NCBI GenBank assembly: GCA_045530935.1
Contig: JAZSDC010000032.1
Location: 1,223 to 65,222 of the forward strand
Origin: Candidatus Enterousia sp.
GTDB taxonomy: Bacteria; Pseudomonadota; Alphaproteobacteria; Rs-D84
Reading direction: 5' to 3'
Length of the DNA: 64,000 bases
Shown: positions 680 through 58,299 of the stretch, piece after piece
Layout: each line of letters starts with the position of its first letter
Numbering within the stretch: the first letter of the stretch is position 1
The notes under the pieces: model-generated
What the model was told of the DNA's origin: nothing
Database searches by the model: none
The model's input: only the letters and a program-made list of their open reading frames with translations
Position numbers and translations under genes: made by a program

Positions 680-2802
680 TAAAAAGATTTTTTCCTTTAA
701 CTTATATTTTGGGAATGTTCTTTTTGCCTGTGGGGTTATATGCAGATTCGGATCAGAATGCGATTTATATGAATGGACCAAGTTATCAAAATATCACAAA
801 TGTAGGAATGTTGGGTGATGATGGTGCCTGGGGGGATGGACAGTGGAATCTTAAAAATACGTGGTCGTATGCGGCACTGGGTGATGCAATGGACGAATTT
901 TATAATAAATGTTCAAGGGTGGATATAAATCAATTGGTTGAGTTTAGTAATTGGTTGCATGGTCTTGGGGCGACAGCTTCGTTAAAAGAATTGGCAGAAA
1001 AGTGTGTCGATATTGAAGGGTTTAAAAACAACGAAATTATAAGAGGATATAAGGATGAAAGTAGAGGAATAACGTATGAGTGTGCGTTGCCTGATGCCGA
1101 GGCGGCGACGTGTAATTCATCTGGGTGTGGTGAAAGACAGTATACGAAAGTACTTGCAAGAAATGAAAATAAGGCATGTGATATATTTTTATCTACGTTT
1201 ATACAAAGACATAATCATATTGCAGAGAATATTAGTAATAGACCAGGAACATATGTTGAAGAGGTTGCGCCAGGTGTGTACAAGGTGGTCGATGTTGTCT
1301 TGGCGCCGGGGTATTATATACCAATGCCGGGTGTTGTAGCAGGAAGAATTAATCAGGCAGTGAATACGAGTCCTGAATATACAAAGGTGTATAAATTAGT
1401 TGGTGGTCGCCGGGTTAAGCCAGCCTCAAATGGGACGGGGGTTGTTTTCTTGGGTGAAAATGATACAGATGAAAATGCCTATGTTTTAGCCCCAGGTACA
1501 GTTCACGAGATTCCGGGTTTACATACATGGACCAATGATATGTTTTTAAATGTGGATTCTAGGGATAGTAATCGTGGTGTTTTGAATGATAGTTATATTT
1601 GTACCCAAAGTGATGTTACAACGGTTATATATCAGATGTTTAATCGTGATCGTGGAAGTTTAAACTATACAATAAATGCAGGGGCGTCTTTATTGCCGGC
1701 AACTTGGAGAGAAGTTGGGTTAGCAGTTGAGTCAGCAGTTGGGCCATCATTAACTACTTCGGGAGTAGTTGGGCCAGCAGTTGGGCCATCATTAACTGCT
1801 TATGTTGGTCTTTTTGATACAAAAAGAACTTTGCATGAATTTTGCAGTGTTTCAGGGCAGTCAGAGGTAGGTTCGCATACCAATGGTGTAATGTTCGAAG
1901 GGAAAATTGCGAATTTGGAATGGTTGGGGCATTACCTTTATGGGATGATACGTTCCGAGATTGCATTGGTTAGTCCAGAAACAGCAGATGAAATTGTTTC
2001 ATTGTTAGAAGATTCTTCAAATGGAAATAGTACAGGTGAATCAGAAAAACATCAGGCAGCAGCATCTATGGGGGCGCAAAGTCAAAGTGTGGTTAGTTCG
2101 GAAATGAATCGTATTTTTTCTAACACGCAGTTTGATACACCACGGGATGCAGTTTGTTATTTTATGAAGTATTCTAAAGAGAAGGTTTGGCCAAATTTAA
2201 CTGTACCAGAAATACGTTCCTTGGAATGTTTTAATAATTGTAATACGTCACTTGCGGCGCAAGATGTTGTAACATGCTTGTATCATAAAGAAGAGGAGGG
2301 GGTTTCGCCAGAATATTGGTTGCCAGTAAGACAAGAGTATGTGGTTGACGATGTCGCAAATGGGGTGTTTGATAATTGCGAGTCTTTGCTTTTGAATGCG
2401 CATCAATGTGATATAACTTATTCTGTGCCCCAAAATCAGGAAGAGGCTTTGGTTGATGAGGAACCTGTTTTAGAAGATGTAACACAAAATCAGGATGCGA
2501 CTGCGATGACAATGGACAGAACCTTTGCAGATGCGATTTTTGATACTGTGGACCAGGCACTTTGCGCGACAATAGATGATGTTTGGAATAACAAAGGCTG
2601 GAATGACCGGGCATCAGGACATAAAGAAAAAATTAAATGTTTTTATAATTGTAATAATAATGATACACATGTTGTTACATGTGCGTATGGTGGGGAAAAC
2701 CTTGCAGAATGGACCGGCGGGACATATGTGTACGCGGTTGGGAATATCACAAATGAAGTGTGCGAAAACATTACAAAAAATGTAGCAGATTGTGGTATTT
2801 GA
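676..2802 (+). CDS. 708-aa secreted cysteine-rich protein, no recognised family
   Basis: Long ORF with a signal peptide (MIKRFFPLTYILGMFFLPVGLYA). Many Cys residues and a duplicated C-terminal CF(N/Y)NCN..VVTC module. A terminator follows. Confidence 0.85.
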   Translation: MIKRFFPLTYILGMFFLPVGLYADSDQNAIYMNGPSYQNITNVGMLGDDGAWGDGQWNLKNTWSYAALGDAMDEFYNKCSRVDINQLVEFSNWLHGLGATASLKELAEKCVDIEGFKNNEIIRGYKDESRGITYECALPDAEAATCNSSGCGERQYTKVLARNENKACDIFLSTFIQRHNHIAENISNRPGTYVEEVAPGVYKVVDVVLAPGYYIPMPGVVAGRINQAVNTSPEYTKVYKLVGGRRVKPASNGTGVVFLGENDTDENAYVLAPGTVHEIPGLHTWTNDMFLNVDSRDSNRGVLNDSYICTQSDVTTVIYQMFNRDRGSLNYTINAGASLLPATWREVGLAVESAVGPSLTTSGVVGPAVGPSLTAYVGLFDTKRTLHEFCSVSGQSEVGSHTNGVMFEGKIANLEWLGHYLYGMIRSEIALVSPETADEIVSLLEDSSNGNSTGESEKHQAAASMGAQSQSVVSSEMNRIFSNTQFDTPRDAVCYFMKYSKEKVWPNLTVPEIRSLECFNNCNTSLAAQDVVTCLYHKEEEGVSPEYWLPVRQEYVVDDVANGVFDNCESLLLNAHQCDITYSVPQNQEEALVDEEPVLEDVTQNQDATAMTMDRTFADAIFDTVDQALCATIDDVWNNKGWNDRASGHKEKIKCFYNCNNNDTHVVTCAYGGENLAEWTGGTYVYAVGNITNEVCENITKNVADCGI

Positions 2803-42225: not shown

Positions 42226-42417
42226 GGTTTTAATTTTGGTGGCGGCTCGTCGGACTGTATATTCCCATAATCGCTTTCGCTCTATGGGCCCCTTTCACTA
42301 CGTAAGGTTCAAACTGCGCGCGTGTGGACGCTTGTTTTCACCAACTGACGTTCCGAACTGGTCGGTCCTTCGTCCAACCAGACCAAAATAAAAACCACCA
42401 TTTGGTGGTTTTAATTC
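42226..42417 (-). repeat. tRNA-linked element E1: terminator, ~100-nt core with hairpin, and a diverged copy of the tRNA-Leu 3' end
   Basis: ggttttaatt-t-tggtggcggctcgtcggact (42226..42256) repeats ggttttaatt-c-tggtggccctggtcggact (42407..42436). The core is homologous to 58057..58142. Confidence 0.7.
42390..42411 (-). terminator. rho-independent terminator of tRNA-Leu(CAA)
   Basis: Minus strand: aaaccacca-aat-ggtggttt plus ttatttt. Confidence 0.8.
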
Positions 42418-42502
42418 TGGTGGCCCTGGTCGGACTCGAACCGACACTCATTGCTGAACTTGATTTTGAGTCAAGCGCGTCTACCAATTCCGCCACGGGG
42501 CC
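42418..42502 (-). tRNA. tRNA-Leu (anticodon CAA)
   Basis: 85-nt type II tRNA. GGCGGAATTGGTAGACGC D-arm, anticodon loop CTCAAAA, long variable arm, T-loop GTTCGAG, encoded CCA. One C:A mismatch in the acceptor stem. Confidence 0.9.
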
Positions 42503-54161: not shown

Positions 54162-54399
54162 GTCGTGATGTGTTATCACGATGAGGTGTCAAGACCTCGG
54201 TACAGGCGTGGAATACATACTTGTGGCGCATTTTTGTGCTTTTTTTTATGATTCCGTTGAAAAAAACTCCTGATCATTTTTGGTCAGGAGGGCTGTGAAT
54301 ATATTGAATAAGCACACAATTCCTGTAATTGTCTTGAACCTCCTGACCACTTGTTTAAAAACAGTGGTTTTTTATTTCGAAATGAAAGGGGGAATTTTT
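54162..54399 (+). promoter_or_regulatory. ~240-nt structured leader with mutually exclusive pairings
   Basis: ctcctgatc (54267..54275) and cctcctgacc (54339..54348) both pair with ggtcaggagg (54282..54291). A weak hairpin plus T-run follows at 54347..54374. Confidence 0.4.
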
Positions 54400-55737
54400 A
54401 TGAAAAATAAAATATTTGCAACCATTGGTGGGGCGGTTGCCGCGCTGTGTCCATGGGTGACACATGCAGAAACATTTCCGACCGACGGAAATATGTTGGA
54501 AAACAAAACATACGAATCGGCGGCAACATACAATAATTTGGGCACATATGCGGGGTCGGTCAGTGCCACTGCAGAATACGCAGACATATTGTACAATGTT
54601 GGTGCGGGGCAATACCTGCCCGCGGGCAGCGAAGGCGTTGGCGCGGTGTGTACCGCGGGAAATTACTGTCCGGGGTTGACGAATGCCACATACAGCGCAA
54701 CAGATAACCAGGGACTGACCGCGTGTCCAAACGGATATCCAAATTCGGATGCGGGGGCCAGCATGAACACACAATGCTATACCACATGTACAGACAAATC
54801 GGTAATCGCACATGCGACGGCGGTCGCCGGAAATGATTACTATGGCAACGGCACGGACACATGTTATCCAACCGCATGCGATAATGGTTATCACACATAT
54901 AATGGTATAGAAATGGTCGAATCGGATCCATTGGTTCCAGGCGCAAACCCCAGTTTAGCAGGTACAAGTTTTGGCTATATCAATCCGAACGGCGATAAGT
55001 CCCAAGAAGGTGTTTTTGGCCTGACAGAAAACGGCACCTGGGGGGTCGCATATTCATATGGTAATGTATATGGTCAGGCCAGTTGTCAGTCATCAATAAC
55101 CGAATCTGTGGCGGGAAAGGAGTCATATTCTGGGATGATGTTAGATGAATCTACAAAACCTGAGGCCGACGATGTTCGCACTGCGTTGGAAACGGCGGGT
55201 GTAGATTCGGCGGCGGTTGATTCAGTTGTTGACATGCATGAAAAATATCTGGCTGGGGAAATTGATTTTGAGGAAGCGTATAAGACCGCGTTTGCCATAT
55301 TGGGCAGTGAATATGACGCAGATTTCAGCACAACCGCTTCGGGCCGATATTGTTTTTGTCAGATGACGGCATATAGTGCCAGTGGTTCCAGTGAGCTGAT
55401 ACCAGTCACATCGGCCCCCTGGGTCTTCATGAGCGACCTCAGCTCGAAGTTCGGTTGCGGGATCTCCTGCGCGTACGACTGTGCGCTCTGCATGCAGAAC
55501 GACGGCGCGTACGATCGCGCCTTCCGTGCTGCGGTGTTGGGGTCGCTTGGCACGCGGACGGTTGGTGTTTGCGCGGCAAACGAAATCAGTATTACGTGGG
55601 CGGACGCGGATCCGGCAGATGTTGCGGAAAATAACGCGGGCGTATGTACGTATGATGGCGACATCCGCACCCCGGTCAAGGCCATCACAAAGCCAGGTAA
55701 GACATTCAAGGGATGGAAATTTAACAAAGTGAATTAA
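54400..55737 (+). CDS. 445-aa secreted cysteine-rich protein with CP.G(Y) repeats and one C-terminal Listeria-Bacteroides-type repeat
   Basis: AAGGGGG SD 8 nt upstream. Signal peptide MKNKIFATIGGAVAALCPWVTHA. NYCPG..GLTACPNGYP, and C-terminal KPGKTFKGWKF. Confidence 0.8.
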   Translation: MKNKIFATIGGAVAALCPWVTHAETFPTDGNMLENKTYESAATYNNLGTYAGSVSATAEYADILYNVGAGQYLPAGSEGVGAVCTAGNYCPGLTNATYSATDNQGLTACPNGYPNSDAGASMNTQCYTTCTDKSVIAHATAVAGNDYYGNGTDTCYPTACDNGYHTYNGIEMVESDPLVPGANPSLAGTSFGYINPNGDKSQEGVFGLTENGTWGVAYSYGNVYGQASCQSSITESVAGKESYSGMMLDESTKPEADDVRTALETAGVDSAAVDSVVDMHEKYLAGEIDFEEAYKTAFAILGSEYDADFSTTASGRYCFCQMTAYSASGSSELIPVTSAPWVFMSDLSSKFGCGISCAYDCALCMQNDGAYDRAFRAAVLGSLGTRTVGVCAANEISITWADADPADVAENNAGVCTYDGDIRTPVKAITKPGKTFKGWKFNKVN

Positions 55738-55749
55738 ACATCCAAACGA

Positions 55750-56334
55750 ATGAAAAAGGCGTATGTTTTTTCAATCGCATTATCAGTATCGGCGAATTGT
55801 TTCGCCGATACTGATTTGTCTTTTTTGGCGCCAAACACTGTTATTCCAAATGCGTGTGTGTATAACAATACCGGGGTCTATTCAGATGAATTTGAAATGA
55901 TTCCAATCTGGGAAGATACCATATACACATGCGAACGCGGGTATTTCCTGCCTAAATTGTCTGAGGTTTGCGCACATTGCCCTGAAAATTCGTATTGTCC
56001 GGGTGGCAAATACACATATTCCGAAACGGCGGACACAGGCCTGAACGCATGCCCCGATGGAATGGTTGCGCCCGATGGTATGTGGGAACTGGCGCAATGT
56101 GGACGAAAATTCCATGTCGGCGATGGTTTTTTATATTTACGCACAGCGAAACAGACCGCACATGCGTTGCATTTTGATGTCAATGGTGACGGTATTGCAG
56201 ATTTCTTTGCCAATTTAAGTACAACAGATGTGGCGATTAGTAAGGATTCAACGCGCCGGATGAAGGTGCGAATGAATGACACAATTTATTTTGTTCACGA
56301 TGACACCGTGGATGTGTCAGCGGGGACAGAGTAA
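55750..56334 (+). CDS. 194-aa secreted cysteine-rich protein (CP.NSYCPGG / ACPDG motifs)
   Basis: Signal peptide MKKAYVFSIALSVSANCFA. Shares the Cys motif with 54400..55737. Confidence 0.8.
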   Translation: MKKAYVFSIALSVSANCFADTDLSFLAPNTVIPNACVYNNTGVYSDEFEMIPIWEDTIYTCERGYFLPKLSEVCAHCPENSYCPGGKYTYSETADTGLNACPDGMVAPDGMWELAQCGRKFHVGDGFLYLRTAKQTAHALHFDVNGDGIADFFANLSTTDVAISKDSTRRMKVRMNDTIYFVHDDTVDVSAGTE

Positions 56335-56959: not shown

Positions 56960-57886
56960 ATGAAATTATTGATTATTTCATTTTTGCTTTGTATTCTGGG
57001 GTTTGATTGCAATGCTAAAATTGATAATCGTAAATATGCGGATTGGGGCGCCTATCCATATAATATGTTTGTATTGGTTAATTACAGTGGTACAGGTCAA
57101 TATGTTGCGCCCGATTTAATTTTGACCAGTTTGCATCTTGTTGATCAGACGTGCTATGATTCCGAATTGGATTATATTAATCAGCGTGGTTGCGATTTGT
57201 TGGATTCGTTGGAGCGTGAATACAAAGGGGATGTTGTTGCAGTTGGCAGACCATATTCTATTATGTCTGGTAAGCCTTTTGATGGTACAGGGTATTTGCC
57301 GTCGGATGATTGGGCGTTAATTCGGGTCAGGGATCCAAAATTTTTTCGTTATGATTATTTTAATGTATTGCCCCAGGCAAAAACTGGGAATGTGAATAAT
57401 GCGGGATTCGGTGCGATGCGTATCGTAACAGATGCAGAACTGAAAATCATACGCAAGAAATTTATCAGATTGGTGCGAGAAAGGTATCCTGTGAATGATA
57501 ATGATGATGTTGTCTTGAAAAGGATTCCTTTTACAGATTTTATTAGAGATTTGGATGATGCTTTGGGACAAGATGACGAAGATGGCCAAGCAATGGAACC
57601 GTTGTTTCAAGATGGGGATAAATTAAAATTCTCGAGATGCAGCATAGAAGATGTCGAAAATGGCTATTTCTATCACAGGTGTATGGGCGCACATGGTAAT
57701 TCGGGTGGCGCATTTTGGAGTGGTGATAATGATTTACATGGAATTTTAGCAACAGGGGCAGATTCATTTGATAAAAAAATAATGAAGCAAGGCAGTGGTG
57801 TAGATAGTAAATCTTTTTATGATGCCTTGATGCAGGCGATGATTTTATCAGAAGATAAAGAATTATCCACGTTGGACGTGGATTAA
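56960..57886 (+). CDS. secreted trypsin-like (S1) serine peptidase
   Basis: Signal peptide. His context LILTSLHLV, Asp context DDWALIRV, Ser context GAHGNSGGAFW. Confidence 0.75.
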   Translation: MKLLIISFLLCILGFDCNAKIDNRKYADWGAYPYNMFVLVNYSGTGQYVAPDLILTSLHLVDQTCYDSELDYINQRGCDLLDSLEREYKGDVVAVGRPYSIMSGKPFDGTGYLPSDDWALIRVRDPKFFRYDYFNVLPQAKTGNVNNAGFGAMRIVTDAELKIIRKKFIRLVRERYPVNDNDDVVLKRIPFTDFIRDLDDALGQDDEDGQAMEPLFQDGDKLKFSRCSIEDVENGYFYHRCMGAHGNSGGAFWSGDNDLHGILATGADSFDKKIMKQGSGVDSKSFYDALMQAMILSEDKELSTLDVD

Positions 57887-58241
57887 TAAAAAATGCACCG
57901 GCGGCGGGGCATTCGTTAGTGCGCGAACTGCGTTGGGGGTGTTCTGGCGTACTTATTGTCGAACCCTGGGTTCAAATATCCACGTTGCACGTGGATTAAT
58001 AAAAAATACCACACAAGGTGGTATTTTCTATTAATTCTGGCGCATCCAGAAGGATTGTTTAATTCCCATCACTGGCGTGATGGGCCCCTTTTCCCCGCGT
58101 AAGGTTCGAACATCGTTGGCACTCGTTCTCACCAACTATCGGGTCGAACCCTGGGTTCAAATATCCACGTTGGACGTGGATTAATAAAAAATACCACACA
58201 AGGTGGTATTTTCTATTAATTCTGGCGCATCCAGAAGGATT
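57865..58241 (-). repeat. tRNA-Arg-linked repeat array (elements E2/E3)
   Basis: Three copies of the 30-bp hairpin module atccacgttg(g/c)acgtggattaataaaaaat (57865, 57978, 58163). A 99-bp direct repeat 57958..58056 = 58143..58241 (1 mismatch) contains the tRNA-Arg terminator and 19 nt of its 3' end. Confidence 0.85.
58185..58209 (-). terminator. rho-independent terminator of tRNA-Arg (duplicated at 58000..58024)
   Basis: Minus strand: ataccac-cttgt-gtggtat plus T6. Confidence 0.8.
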
Positions 58242-58299
58242 CGAACCCTCAGTCTTCTGATCCGTAGTCAGATGCTTTATCCAGTTAAGCTATGGATGC
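58223..58299 (-). tRNA. tRNA-Arg (anticodon ACG)
   Basis: 77-nt cloverleaf. Acceptor GCATCCA/TGGATGC, anticodon loop CTACGGA, T-loop GTTCGAA, encoded CCA. Confidence 0.95.

Follow-up and report, generated by a model that had tools for sequence, protein, structure and literature searches.

A two-unit array of tRNA-gene-linked, modular repeats with a predicted tRNA-like fold in Candidatus Enterousia

The tRNA-Arg locus

The 64,000-nucleotide stretch of Candidatus Enterousia sp. analyzed here in its entirety (hereinafter, the window; assembly GCA_045530935.1, contig JAZSDC010000032.1, positions 1,223 to 65,222) carries, between a tRNA-Arg(ACG) gene (58223-58299, minus strand, recognized by both ARAGORN and Rfam) and a gene for a trypsin-like protease, a tandem array of short structured units that is the subject of this work. 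The hallmark of the locus, reported in a preliminary description of this DNA and found here exactly as claimed, is a direct repeat of 99 nt with a single mismatch and a spacing of 185 (57958-58056 = 58143-58241). A repeat of this length is not expected by chance, and even its first 20 nt account for only 0.02 matches in shuffled sequence. Read in the tRNA sense, the repeat consists of the last 19 nt of the tRNA, copied exactly in the second instance, a terminator-like hairpin, the palindrome tccacgtNcaacgtgga, and ttgaacccagggttcgac. The overall order of parts on the minus strand is tRNA-Arg, terminator-like hairpin, palindrome tccacgtccaacgtgga, ttgaacccagggttcga and an 86-nt core; after the core come the exact 19-nt copy of the tRNA end and, once more, the terminator, the palindrome and ttgaacccagggttcga; at the far end, caataagtacgcca and a GC-rich stretch are followed by half a terminator and a third copy of the palindrome. 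The three copies of what had been called a hairpin module are all in place (57861-94, 57974-58007 and 58159-92). The features of the locus, together with those of a second locus in the window that contains a related unit (E1), are as follows.

58223-58299, minus strand: intact tRNA-Arg(ACG) gene with encoded CCA (ARAGORN; Rfam tRNA model, 67.3 bits)
58181-58222, minus strand: terminator-like hairpin T1 (gaattaatagaaaataccac-cttgt-gtggtattttttattaa), from sequence; the terminator-like site was called on the plus strand and the hairpin is symmetric
58161-58180, minus strand: arm H1, predicted 5' strand of the closing helix P1 and also a palindrome (minimum free energy, MFE, fold; comparison with non-palindromic arms)
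58144-58160, minus strand: P2 hairpin ttGAACCCaGGGTTCGa, its 3' strand being the 5' strand of the tRNA T-stem plus TTCG (fold and locus comparison)
58057-58143, minus strand: core of unit A (P3 and P5 scaffold plus alpha), between TTCG and A58 of the T-loop copy (alignment with the tRNA-Leu locus)
58084-58151, minus strand: covariance model match in the core of unit A (77.7 bits)
58100-58141, minus strand: alpha hairpin module (GAUAGUUGGUGAGAAC..GUUCGAACCUUA), from alignment, with covariation at 24:70, 30:63 and 31:62
58065-58084, minus strand: P5 hairpin CCCAUCAC-GCCA-GUGAUGGG, from the fold, covarying across the family
58038-58056, minus strand: tail, identical to the final 19 nt of tRNA-Arg (A58 to CCA), predicted 3' strand of P1 (sequence)
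57996-58037, minus strand: terminator-like hairpin T2, identical to T1 (sequence comparison)
57959-57995, minus strand: arm H2 and P2 of the second unit; the sole mismatch to H1 lies in the palindrome loop (sequence)
57895-57958, minus strand: truncated B module (CAAUAAGUA..CGAAUGCCCCgccgccggugc), with neither a tRNA tail nor the 3' third of the module (aligned with the complete B of locus L240)
57866-57894, minus strand: 3' half of a terminator plus arm copy H3, the positional counterpart of the arm-like remnant at locus L111 (sequence comparison)
56960-57886, plus strand: trypsin-like protease open reading frame (ORF), the last 7 codons and stop of which lie inside H3
42418-42502, minus strand: tRNA-Leu(CAA), with E1 behind it
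42237-42417, minus strand: unit E1, in which a terminator, arm, P2 and A core are followed by a degenerate version of the tRNA-Leu(CAA) 3' end

The segment between the two repeat copies is homologous to approximately 42262-42380 (minus strand), behind tRNA-Leu(CAA), as the preliminary description had proposed: beyond the alignment itself, a covariance model of the central part picks out just these two segments in the window (77.7 and 75.8 bits; the next best match reaches 9.4 bits). Only tRNAs pass the Rfam gathering score in the window, ARAGORN reports neither a transfer-messenger RNA (tmRNA) nor an additional tRNA at the units, and no promoter-like site was found at the window units, which lie on the tRNA strand, behind the terminator-like hairpin.

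The window probably derives from a short-read metagenome-assembled genome (MAG), and a related contig that encodes a 98% identical protease (L114) terminates exactly at the start of the 99-nt repeat, so could the 185-nt periodicity be an artefact of assembly, an outcome that the preliminary description had listed as fatal to its own proposal? We consider this extremely improbable. The two copies are told apart by one mismatch, and they are flanked differently, one by the tRNA and A and the other by A and B, so that the order seen in the window is the only linear path. Furthermore, the junction between H3 and the truncated B recurs in the independent assembly of L114, which argues against an artefact at this point, and the end of the L114 contig shows that the repeat breaks assemblies; arrays like that in the window, with 2-3 units, are present in 10 other assemblies. 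Plausibly, the copy number of unit A is the only feature of the array that could differ.

Anatomy of the unit and its predicted RNA structure

The plan of a unit becomes transparent once the segment of a tRNA from the 5' strand of the T-stem through CCA is denoted S. From 5' to 3', the tRNA and its terminator are followed by S in inverted and degenerate form, which comprises the arm and GAACC(C); beyond a short loop, S recurs in direct orientation, and a terminator ends the unit. The core sits exactly in the T-loop of the direct copy, after TTCG57, that is, ..GGTTCG, core, A(58)RTCC..NCCA. The pairing of GAACC with GGTTCG makes up hairpin P2, and what had been described as the first 20 nt of the core is this hairpin (GAACCC/GGGTTC), which is common to every unit type; similarly, the supposed free-standing hairpin module is a 5' arm that is predicted to pair with the tRNA-derived tail. 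The arm is palindromic in the window lineage and reads GCACATCCCAGGATT in other tRNA-Arg units (L003, L024, L086); in L024, the inverted copy expected from the tRNA is GGTCGGTTTTGAATTCGTGGCGCATCCAGAAGGATTCGAACCC and the one found is GGTCGGTTTTTAATTTGTGCTGCTCATCCCGGGATTTGAACCC. In part, the arm also resembles the 5' strand of the acceptor. Across the units, the mean energy of the arm duplex is -17.3 kcal/mol with the cognate tRNA end vs -13.8 kcal/mol with other tRNA ends.

In the MFE fold, the tRNA-Arg unit of the window adopts a four-helix junction (P1, P2, P3 with alpha, and P5) with a free 3' CGCCA. The closing helix is predicted to comprise 6+4 bp, P1a (CGUCCA:UGGAUG) and P1b (GGAU:AUCC), so that the 5' and 3' ends of the predicted structure form an acceptor-like helix with a single-stranded NCCA. 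The evidence for structure in the core is comparative. In alpha, the pair 24:70 is AU in 41 copies, GC in 9 and GU in 2, the pair 30:63 is GC in 46 and AU in 5, and the pair 31:62 is CG in 31 and UA in 18; the invariant blocks AGUUGGUGA and GUUUGAACCUUACG flank a tandem G.A motif; P5 likewise covaries across the family. Moreover, the tRNA-sense strand folds more stably than its complement in 49 of 51 units (mean difference -6 kcal/mol, p = 7e-10) and contains more G:U pairs (208 vs 148 in the antisense strand), a combination that argues for selection on a transcript of the tRNA strand.

At the tRNA-Leu locus of the window, the tail (42237-42256, agtccgacgagccgccacca) has diverged from the tRNA end (42418-42436, agtccgaccagggccacca), and the arm (ctggttggac) is a closer match to the true tRNA end than to its own tail.

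A family of units behind tRNA genes

The search for relatives, in one genome per species and with two patterns derived from blocks common to both window copies, detected the core in 45 and 106 genome stretches, respectively. With the exception of two contigs, binned as Alistipes and Bacteroidales, the hosts are MAGs of Candidatus Enterousia and related uncultured gut Alphaproteobacteria; the Bacteroidales-binned match was judged spurious. Altogether, the family includes 122 units in ~100 MAGs, and nearly all of those with enough flanking sequence lie 66-125 nt downstream of a tRNA on the same strand, the orientation relative to the tRNA being strict. Units are found behind tRNAs of 14 anticodon types (Lys UUU/CUU, Glu UUC/CUC, Leu CAA, Arg ACG/UCU, His, Thr, Ser, Tyr, Asn and Gln CUG/UUG), and an additional unit was seen behind tRNA-Asp. 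The 3' end of each unit copies the last 17-20 nt of its own neighbouring tRNA, with a mean alignment score of 30.8 of 40. The locus in the window is a two-unit array of a large family and most likely not an integration scar.

These findings bear directly on the simplest conceivable explanation, namely, that the units are decaying tandem duplicates of tRNA genes, i.e. functionless and immobile pseudo-tRNAs. The cloverleaf-like fold, the tail that is identical to the tRNA and the partial likeness of the arm to the acceptor 5' strand are all compatible with such an origin. However, the core, with its invariant blocks, is not derived from tRNA and recurs behind the 14 tRNA types as well as at sites without a tRNA, remnants of the D-arm and the anticodon arm are absent, and the units are not recognized by the tRNA model of Rfam. 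The sharing of one core by unrelated tRNAs largely refutes this possibility, which we regard as very unlikely.

The family resembles no catalogued RNA that we could detect: Rfam 15, applied to the A and B regions of the window, L002 and L058 both at the gathering score and permissively (E <= 5-10), yielded no credible match. A full-text literature search found no description of the family, which apparently has not been reported so far. Two patterns gave 0 matches among the viral contigs of IMG/VR (no search covered plasmid collections), and within the 8-kb loci, none of the copies examined had a transposase or integrase nearby. The flanking ORFs encode the protease, a thymidine kinase, an M48 peptidase and housekeeping proteins. 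The ORFs around copies that are not linked to a tRNA, judged by eye from the N-terminal sequences with no Pfam scan, look like housekeeping genes as well, with no obvious transposase or integrase.

Such unlinked copies are present in the MAG E19_bin150, where at least 4 copies lack tRNA linkage and each has a promoter-like sequence, TTGCCT-17-TATCAT with an extended -10 element; the closing helix in these copies is a perfect one of 17-23 bp and its sequence is not derived from a tRNA. The repeat in this MAG (L058 4917-5227; L052, L077, L079) is ~300 nt long, has perfect palindromic inverted ends of 23 bp and carries a second, degenerate alpha hairpin in tandem; the contigs end inside it.

Interchangeable modules

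Comparison of the units reveals interchangeable modules on one scaffold. The scaffold without alpha, which we denote A0, has a stem P3 (GCC/GGC) capped by a triloop and is found at the tRNA-Arg locus of other species; by alignment, unit A of the window is A0 plus a 42-nt block (58100-58141), the alpha hairpin. Module B, with the consensus CAAUGAGUA...GAAUGCCCC...GAGGGAA, can be written as RNA in the form cGA|CAAUGAGUAAA-stem-UUGUCAsGAAUGCCCCrCAG-hairpin-GAGGGAA, and its 25 copies contain the covarying stems GAGCC/GGCGA, UUGCC/GGCAA, CGCGC/GCGCG and UUUUGAA/UUCAAAA. A scan for B with a 16-mer was unspecific, with ~10 real matches among 119, the rest being mostly chance matches in unrelated phyla. 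B occurs in three settings: as a separate unit flanked by P2 and the tRNA tail; nested within A; and beside a third module. The identification of B also changes the interpretation of the distal part of the array in the window, which had been thought to be an older unit with a degenerate tRNA-like end fused to a foreign GC-rich stretch and which proves to be a truncated copy of this second conserved module.

The third module, which can be written as AGATTCGAAC-hairpin-GTTTGAATCC(GTACG) and contains T-arm-like sequence, comes after B in L127 (1564-1900), L147, L221 and L224; the respective units lie behind terminators and have no adjacent tRNA. Alpha also occurs by itself: in L094 (1898-2146), behind tRNA-Leu(CAA), alpha plus a short linker forms four tandem copies with a period of 70 nt, and the beginning of an array like this one is found at the contig end of L099.

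Gain, loss and recombination

The identical 3' half of tRNA-Arg is common to 73 species, and 62 species-level loci could be classified, of which 35 are occupied, 16 are empty and 11 retain only a remnant of the arm or P2. In the 34 occupied loci that could be typed, the alpha-bearing A is present in 7, A0 in 14 and B in 19, some loci holding several types; 24 of these loci contain one module, 9 contain two and 1 contains three. The empty sites that the preliminary description had called for are thus there, and one of them (L111) is syntenic with the window: the protease, tRNA-Arg, thymidine kinase and M48 peptidase genes are all in place around a coreless site that consists just of the tRNA, the terminator and an arm-like remnant, with a gap of 215 nt vs 466 nt in the window. 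The persistence of the palindrome remnant suggests that this site is probably a deletion scar rather than a virgin site. The remnant (L111 3945-3975, minus strand) reads cttgtgaatatcacaggatatttt, the palindrome and then GGATATTT, and aligns with the arm copy that adjoins the protease gene in the window. At tRNA-Asp, three genomes provide one empty site, one remnant and one filled site, and the filled site has a 55-nt direct repeat of the tRNA end and the terminator, the copies of such repeats being identical within a locus and different between genomes.

Within a genome, the cores tend to be homogeneous: the similarity between cores behind different tRNAs of one genome averages 0.84, with a maximum of 0.98, compared to 0.735 for the same tRNA across species. 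In L009 (~1290-1430, minus strand), the arm of one A unit is of the tRNA-Lys type but its tail and the flank downstream of it are of the tRNA-His type, a chimera that implies recombination between units of different tRNA loci. Taken together, the presence/absence pattern, the homogenization and the chimera point to frequent recombination, gene conversion, gain and loss. Being long direct repeats within tandem units, the 99-nt repeats are an evident substrate for unequal crossing-over, and judging from the sequence, the repeat in the window is what would be expected of both the substrate and the product of such events. Of the serial or nested insertion or unequal crossing-over originally envisaged for this locus, the insertion-prone tRNA flank and the tandem units stand, whereas an integrase, a transposase or a phage or plasmid context did not turn up at the loci examined.

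The possibility that integrative elements targeting tRNA genes gave rise to the units, as scars or in miniaturized form, with the attachment (att) site at the tRNA 3' end, a tyrosine integrase and the core as the conserved end of the element, has to be weighed at this point. The directly repeated tRNA 3' end begins at A58, within the T-loop, a classic sublocation of integrase action among tRNA att sites, and the tRNA remains intact; empty sites exist; and a true island is available for comparison. The latter, a 5.4-kb classical island in tRNA-Lys(UUU) (L009 1645-7222, minus strand), has a 46-nt repeat of the tRNA 3' half from the anticodon loop, and an ORF of 382 aa adjoins the repeat. In the same locus, a B and an A unit lie outside the island, still joined to the displaced 3' half of tRNA-Lys, and this position argues against the units being parts of islands. 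Furthermore, the entire putative element would be only 105-185 nt long, there is no integrase in or beside the units and no viral copy was found, the same core serves 14 tRNA types, the repeats include the terminator and are identical within a locus but different between genomes, and the stems inside the core covary. We therefore consider an origin from integrative elements to be improbable.

The end of the protease gene

The protease ORF ends ..EDKELSTLDVD*. A 98% identical homolog ends ..STLDED, whereas a 70% identical one of nearly equal length ends ..EDFDSKELE, without STLDVD, and in the genome with the empty site (L111), the stop codon follows directly after KELE. From these endings, it follows that the copy of the arm supplied the final six or seven codons of the protease in the window, along with the stop codon, in agreement with the original proposal that the gene runs into the hairpin copy.

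A hypothesis on the nature of the units

What, then, are these units? The hypothesis that we favour, and to which we give about an even chance of being correct, is that structured-RNA cassettes, shaped like tRNAs and linked to tRNA genes, make up the tandem array at this locus. Under this scenario, the inverted and direct copies of the tRNA segment would pair as RNA, via P1 and P2, and close a cloverleaf-like junction with a free NCCA, the other arms of which would be the short stem P3, which may bear alpha, and the hairpin P5; B would replace the core or nest in it. The cassette could be transcribed by read-through from the tRNA promoter, and the closing helix, imitating the acceptor/T-arm stack, would cause the tRNA-processing machinery to excise and stabilize it, with RNase P acting at the 5' end and trimming of the 3' end to CCA. 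The alpha and B hairpins would then be functional or selfish cargo, probably protein-binding. At the DNA level, the units would be gained, lost, duplicated and homogenized by recombination of two kinds, one between the long direct repeats that comprise the tRNA 3' end and the terminator, the other among dispersed cores, and the array in the window, A followed by the truncated B, would be a product of such recombination. For the colonization of new tRNA loci, we can offer a speculative model of template switching, with the terminator palindrome and the universal T-loop sequence GGTTCGA as the switch points, that would explain the inverted copy, the position of the core in the T-loop and the long direct repeat, without the need for a dedicated enzyme.

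A more far-reaching and more tentative version of this hypothesis, rather doubtful in our own estimate, is that the units represent a new class of self-propagating tRNA mimics that borrow the local acceptor/T-arm strand, enter tRNA maturation and spread to new tRNA genes by such template switching, with alpha and B as exchangeable cargo and without an enzyme encoded by the element; possibly, they would enter charging or toxin-decoy pathways as well.

Several observations do not sit easily with the cassette hypothesis. Transcription of the units is something we infer, and the terminator-like hairpin between the tRNA and each unit means that read-through has to be assumed. With about one quarter of the tRNA-Arg loci empty and about one fifth holding only remnants, the cassettes are dispensable, which fits selfish DNA just as well, and no partner protein for the units was found. 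Only 23 of 71 arms pair best with the cognate tRNA end, and P1 is imperfect and bulged. With units of full length, RNAalifold failed to resolve P1 and P2 cleanly and proposed an alternative UUCG:YGAA pairing; the arms align poorly, which makes the RNAalifold picture of P1, P2 and P3 unstable, so that the case for the structure rests on the duplex energies, on direct comparison and on the well-aligned central hairpin. The T-loop motif is absent from P5, the loop of which is GCCA or of the GNRA type, the GGTTCGA motif being located in P2 instead, and the tRNA-like models of Rfam do not match the units.

The main rival is the notion that the units are non-autonomous selfish DNA repeats, akin to miniature inverted-repeat transposable elements (MITEs), repetitive extragenic palindromic (REP) sequences or Rickettsia palindromic elements, that are recognized as DNA by an enzyme encoded elsewhere, the RNA structure being incidental. 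There is much to be said for this view: the units are multi-copy and intergenic and have inverted ends, given the complementarity of arm and tail, perfect over 23 bp in the one lineage where contigs break at the copies; a single locus can be filled, vacant, reduced to a remnant or occupied by truncated copies; B is nested in A; the copies are homogeneous inside a genome; and an arm copy has been absorbed into the end of a protein-coding gene. Nevertheless, we hold it to be unlikely. None of the copies examined has a transposase or integrase beside it, there is no short target duplication of fixed length, the core being flanked instead by 19-99-nt copies of the tRNA end and the terminator, and the orientation relative to the tRNA is strict; the G:U-tolerant, strand-asymmetric structure argues for selection at the RNA level, and in one lineage a promoter is conserved.

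Several further candidates were considered and rejected. Guide RNAs of the omega, bridge or CRISPR RNA type found no counterpart, with no TnpB, IscB or IS110 gene nearby and the potential guide paired in cis. Read as its reverse complement, the tail is perfectly complementary over 19 nt to the tRNA 3' end from position 58, which brings to mind a retroviral-type primer-binding site, but reverse transcriptases were not observed and the sense strand is the one that the structure favours. Rfam detected no tRNA-linked self-cleaving ribozyme (theta or hepatitis delta virus-like, or hammerhead), T-box-like sensing of tRNA was dropped for lack of a consistently present downstream gene, and for a permuted tmRNA the best match scored just 11.6 bits.

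Comparison with known systems

The units combine traits of four kinds of known elements and fully conform to none of them. With the tRNA-like domains of tmRNA, of YrlA Y RNAs (PMC4201824) and of viral tRNA-like structures (TLS), they share the closing helix made from the 5' and 3' ends, the mimicry of the acceptor/T-arm stack, the NCCA end and the grafting of foreign domains onto the frame. Unlike these domains, however, the units have a 3' strand that literally copies the end of the neighbouring tRNA and hence varies from locus to locus, and they lack a canonical T-arm, are multi-copy, arrayed and dispensable, and have no Rfam match.

RNAs derived from the 3' external transcribed spacers (ETS) of tRNA transcripts, exemplified by 3'ETS-leuZ of Escherichia coli, are similar to the units in their origin from the 3' flank of a tRNA and in the presumed reliance on the tRNA promoter and processing. 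The units differ in being preceded by a terminator-like hairpin and in forming a conserved, modular, structured family with a copy of the tRNA end, and nothing about them suggests a sponge.

Integrative elements that target tRNA genes have att sites in the T-loop or at the 3' end, and the units resemble them in the direct duplication of the tRNA 3' part from the T-loop, in the intactness of the tRNA and in the coexistence of empty and filled sites. They differ in the absence of an integrase, in their size of 105-185 nt, in a repeat that spans the terminator, in the extra inverted copy of the target and in the use of the same core at 14 tRNA types.

Finally, palindromic repeats such as REP and bacterial interspersed mosaic elements (BIME), Correia elements and Rickettsia palindromic elements, the last of which occur in reduced alphaproteobacterial genomes, are likewise small, multi-copy, hairpin-forming and intergenic, lie behind genes and are at times absorbed into coding ends. 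In contrast to these repeats, the units are linked strictly to tRNA 3' flanks in one orientation, derive their ends from the target and contain long invariant blocks that are unpaired or non-canonical, as well as nested modules.

Implications

If expressed, the units of these gut bacteria with reduced genomes would add up to a large and apparently unrecorded structured RNA family, in which the copy of the 3' end of the adjacent tRNA serves as a natural frame for exchangeable RNA modules; in biotechnology, tRNA scaffolds are used for the expression of recombinant RNA. The long invariant blocks of the alpha and B hairpins lead one to expect a protein or RNA partner. More generally, tRNA 3' flanks can be hot spots of insertion and duplication even though no integrase is visible at the loci examined, and such turnover bears on how tRNA-linked repeats are read in genome annotation. 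The locus also illustrates how repeats can remodel the end of a protein-coding gene.

Other observations in the window

Upstream of the protease gene (54280-56334, plus strand), the window contains two neighbouring ORFs for cysteine-rich, secreted-looking proteins that are apparently unrelated to the units. Their syntenic counterpart in L111 matches the Pom family of Pfam.

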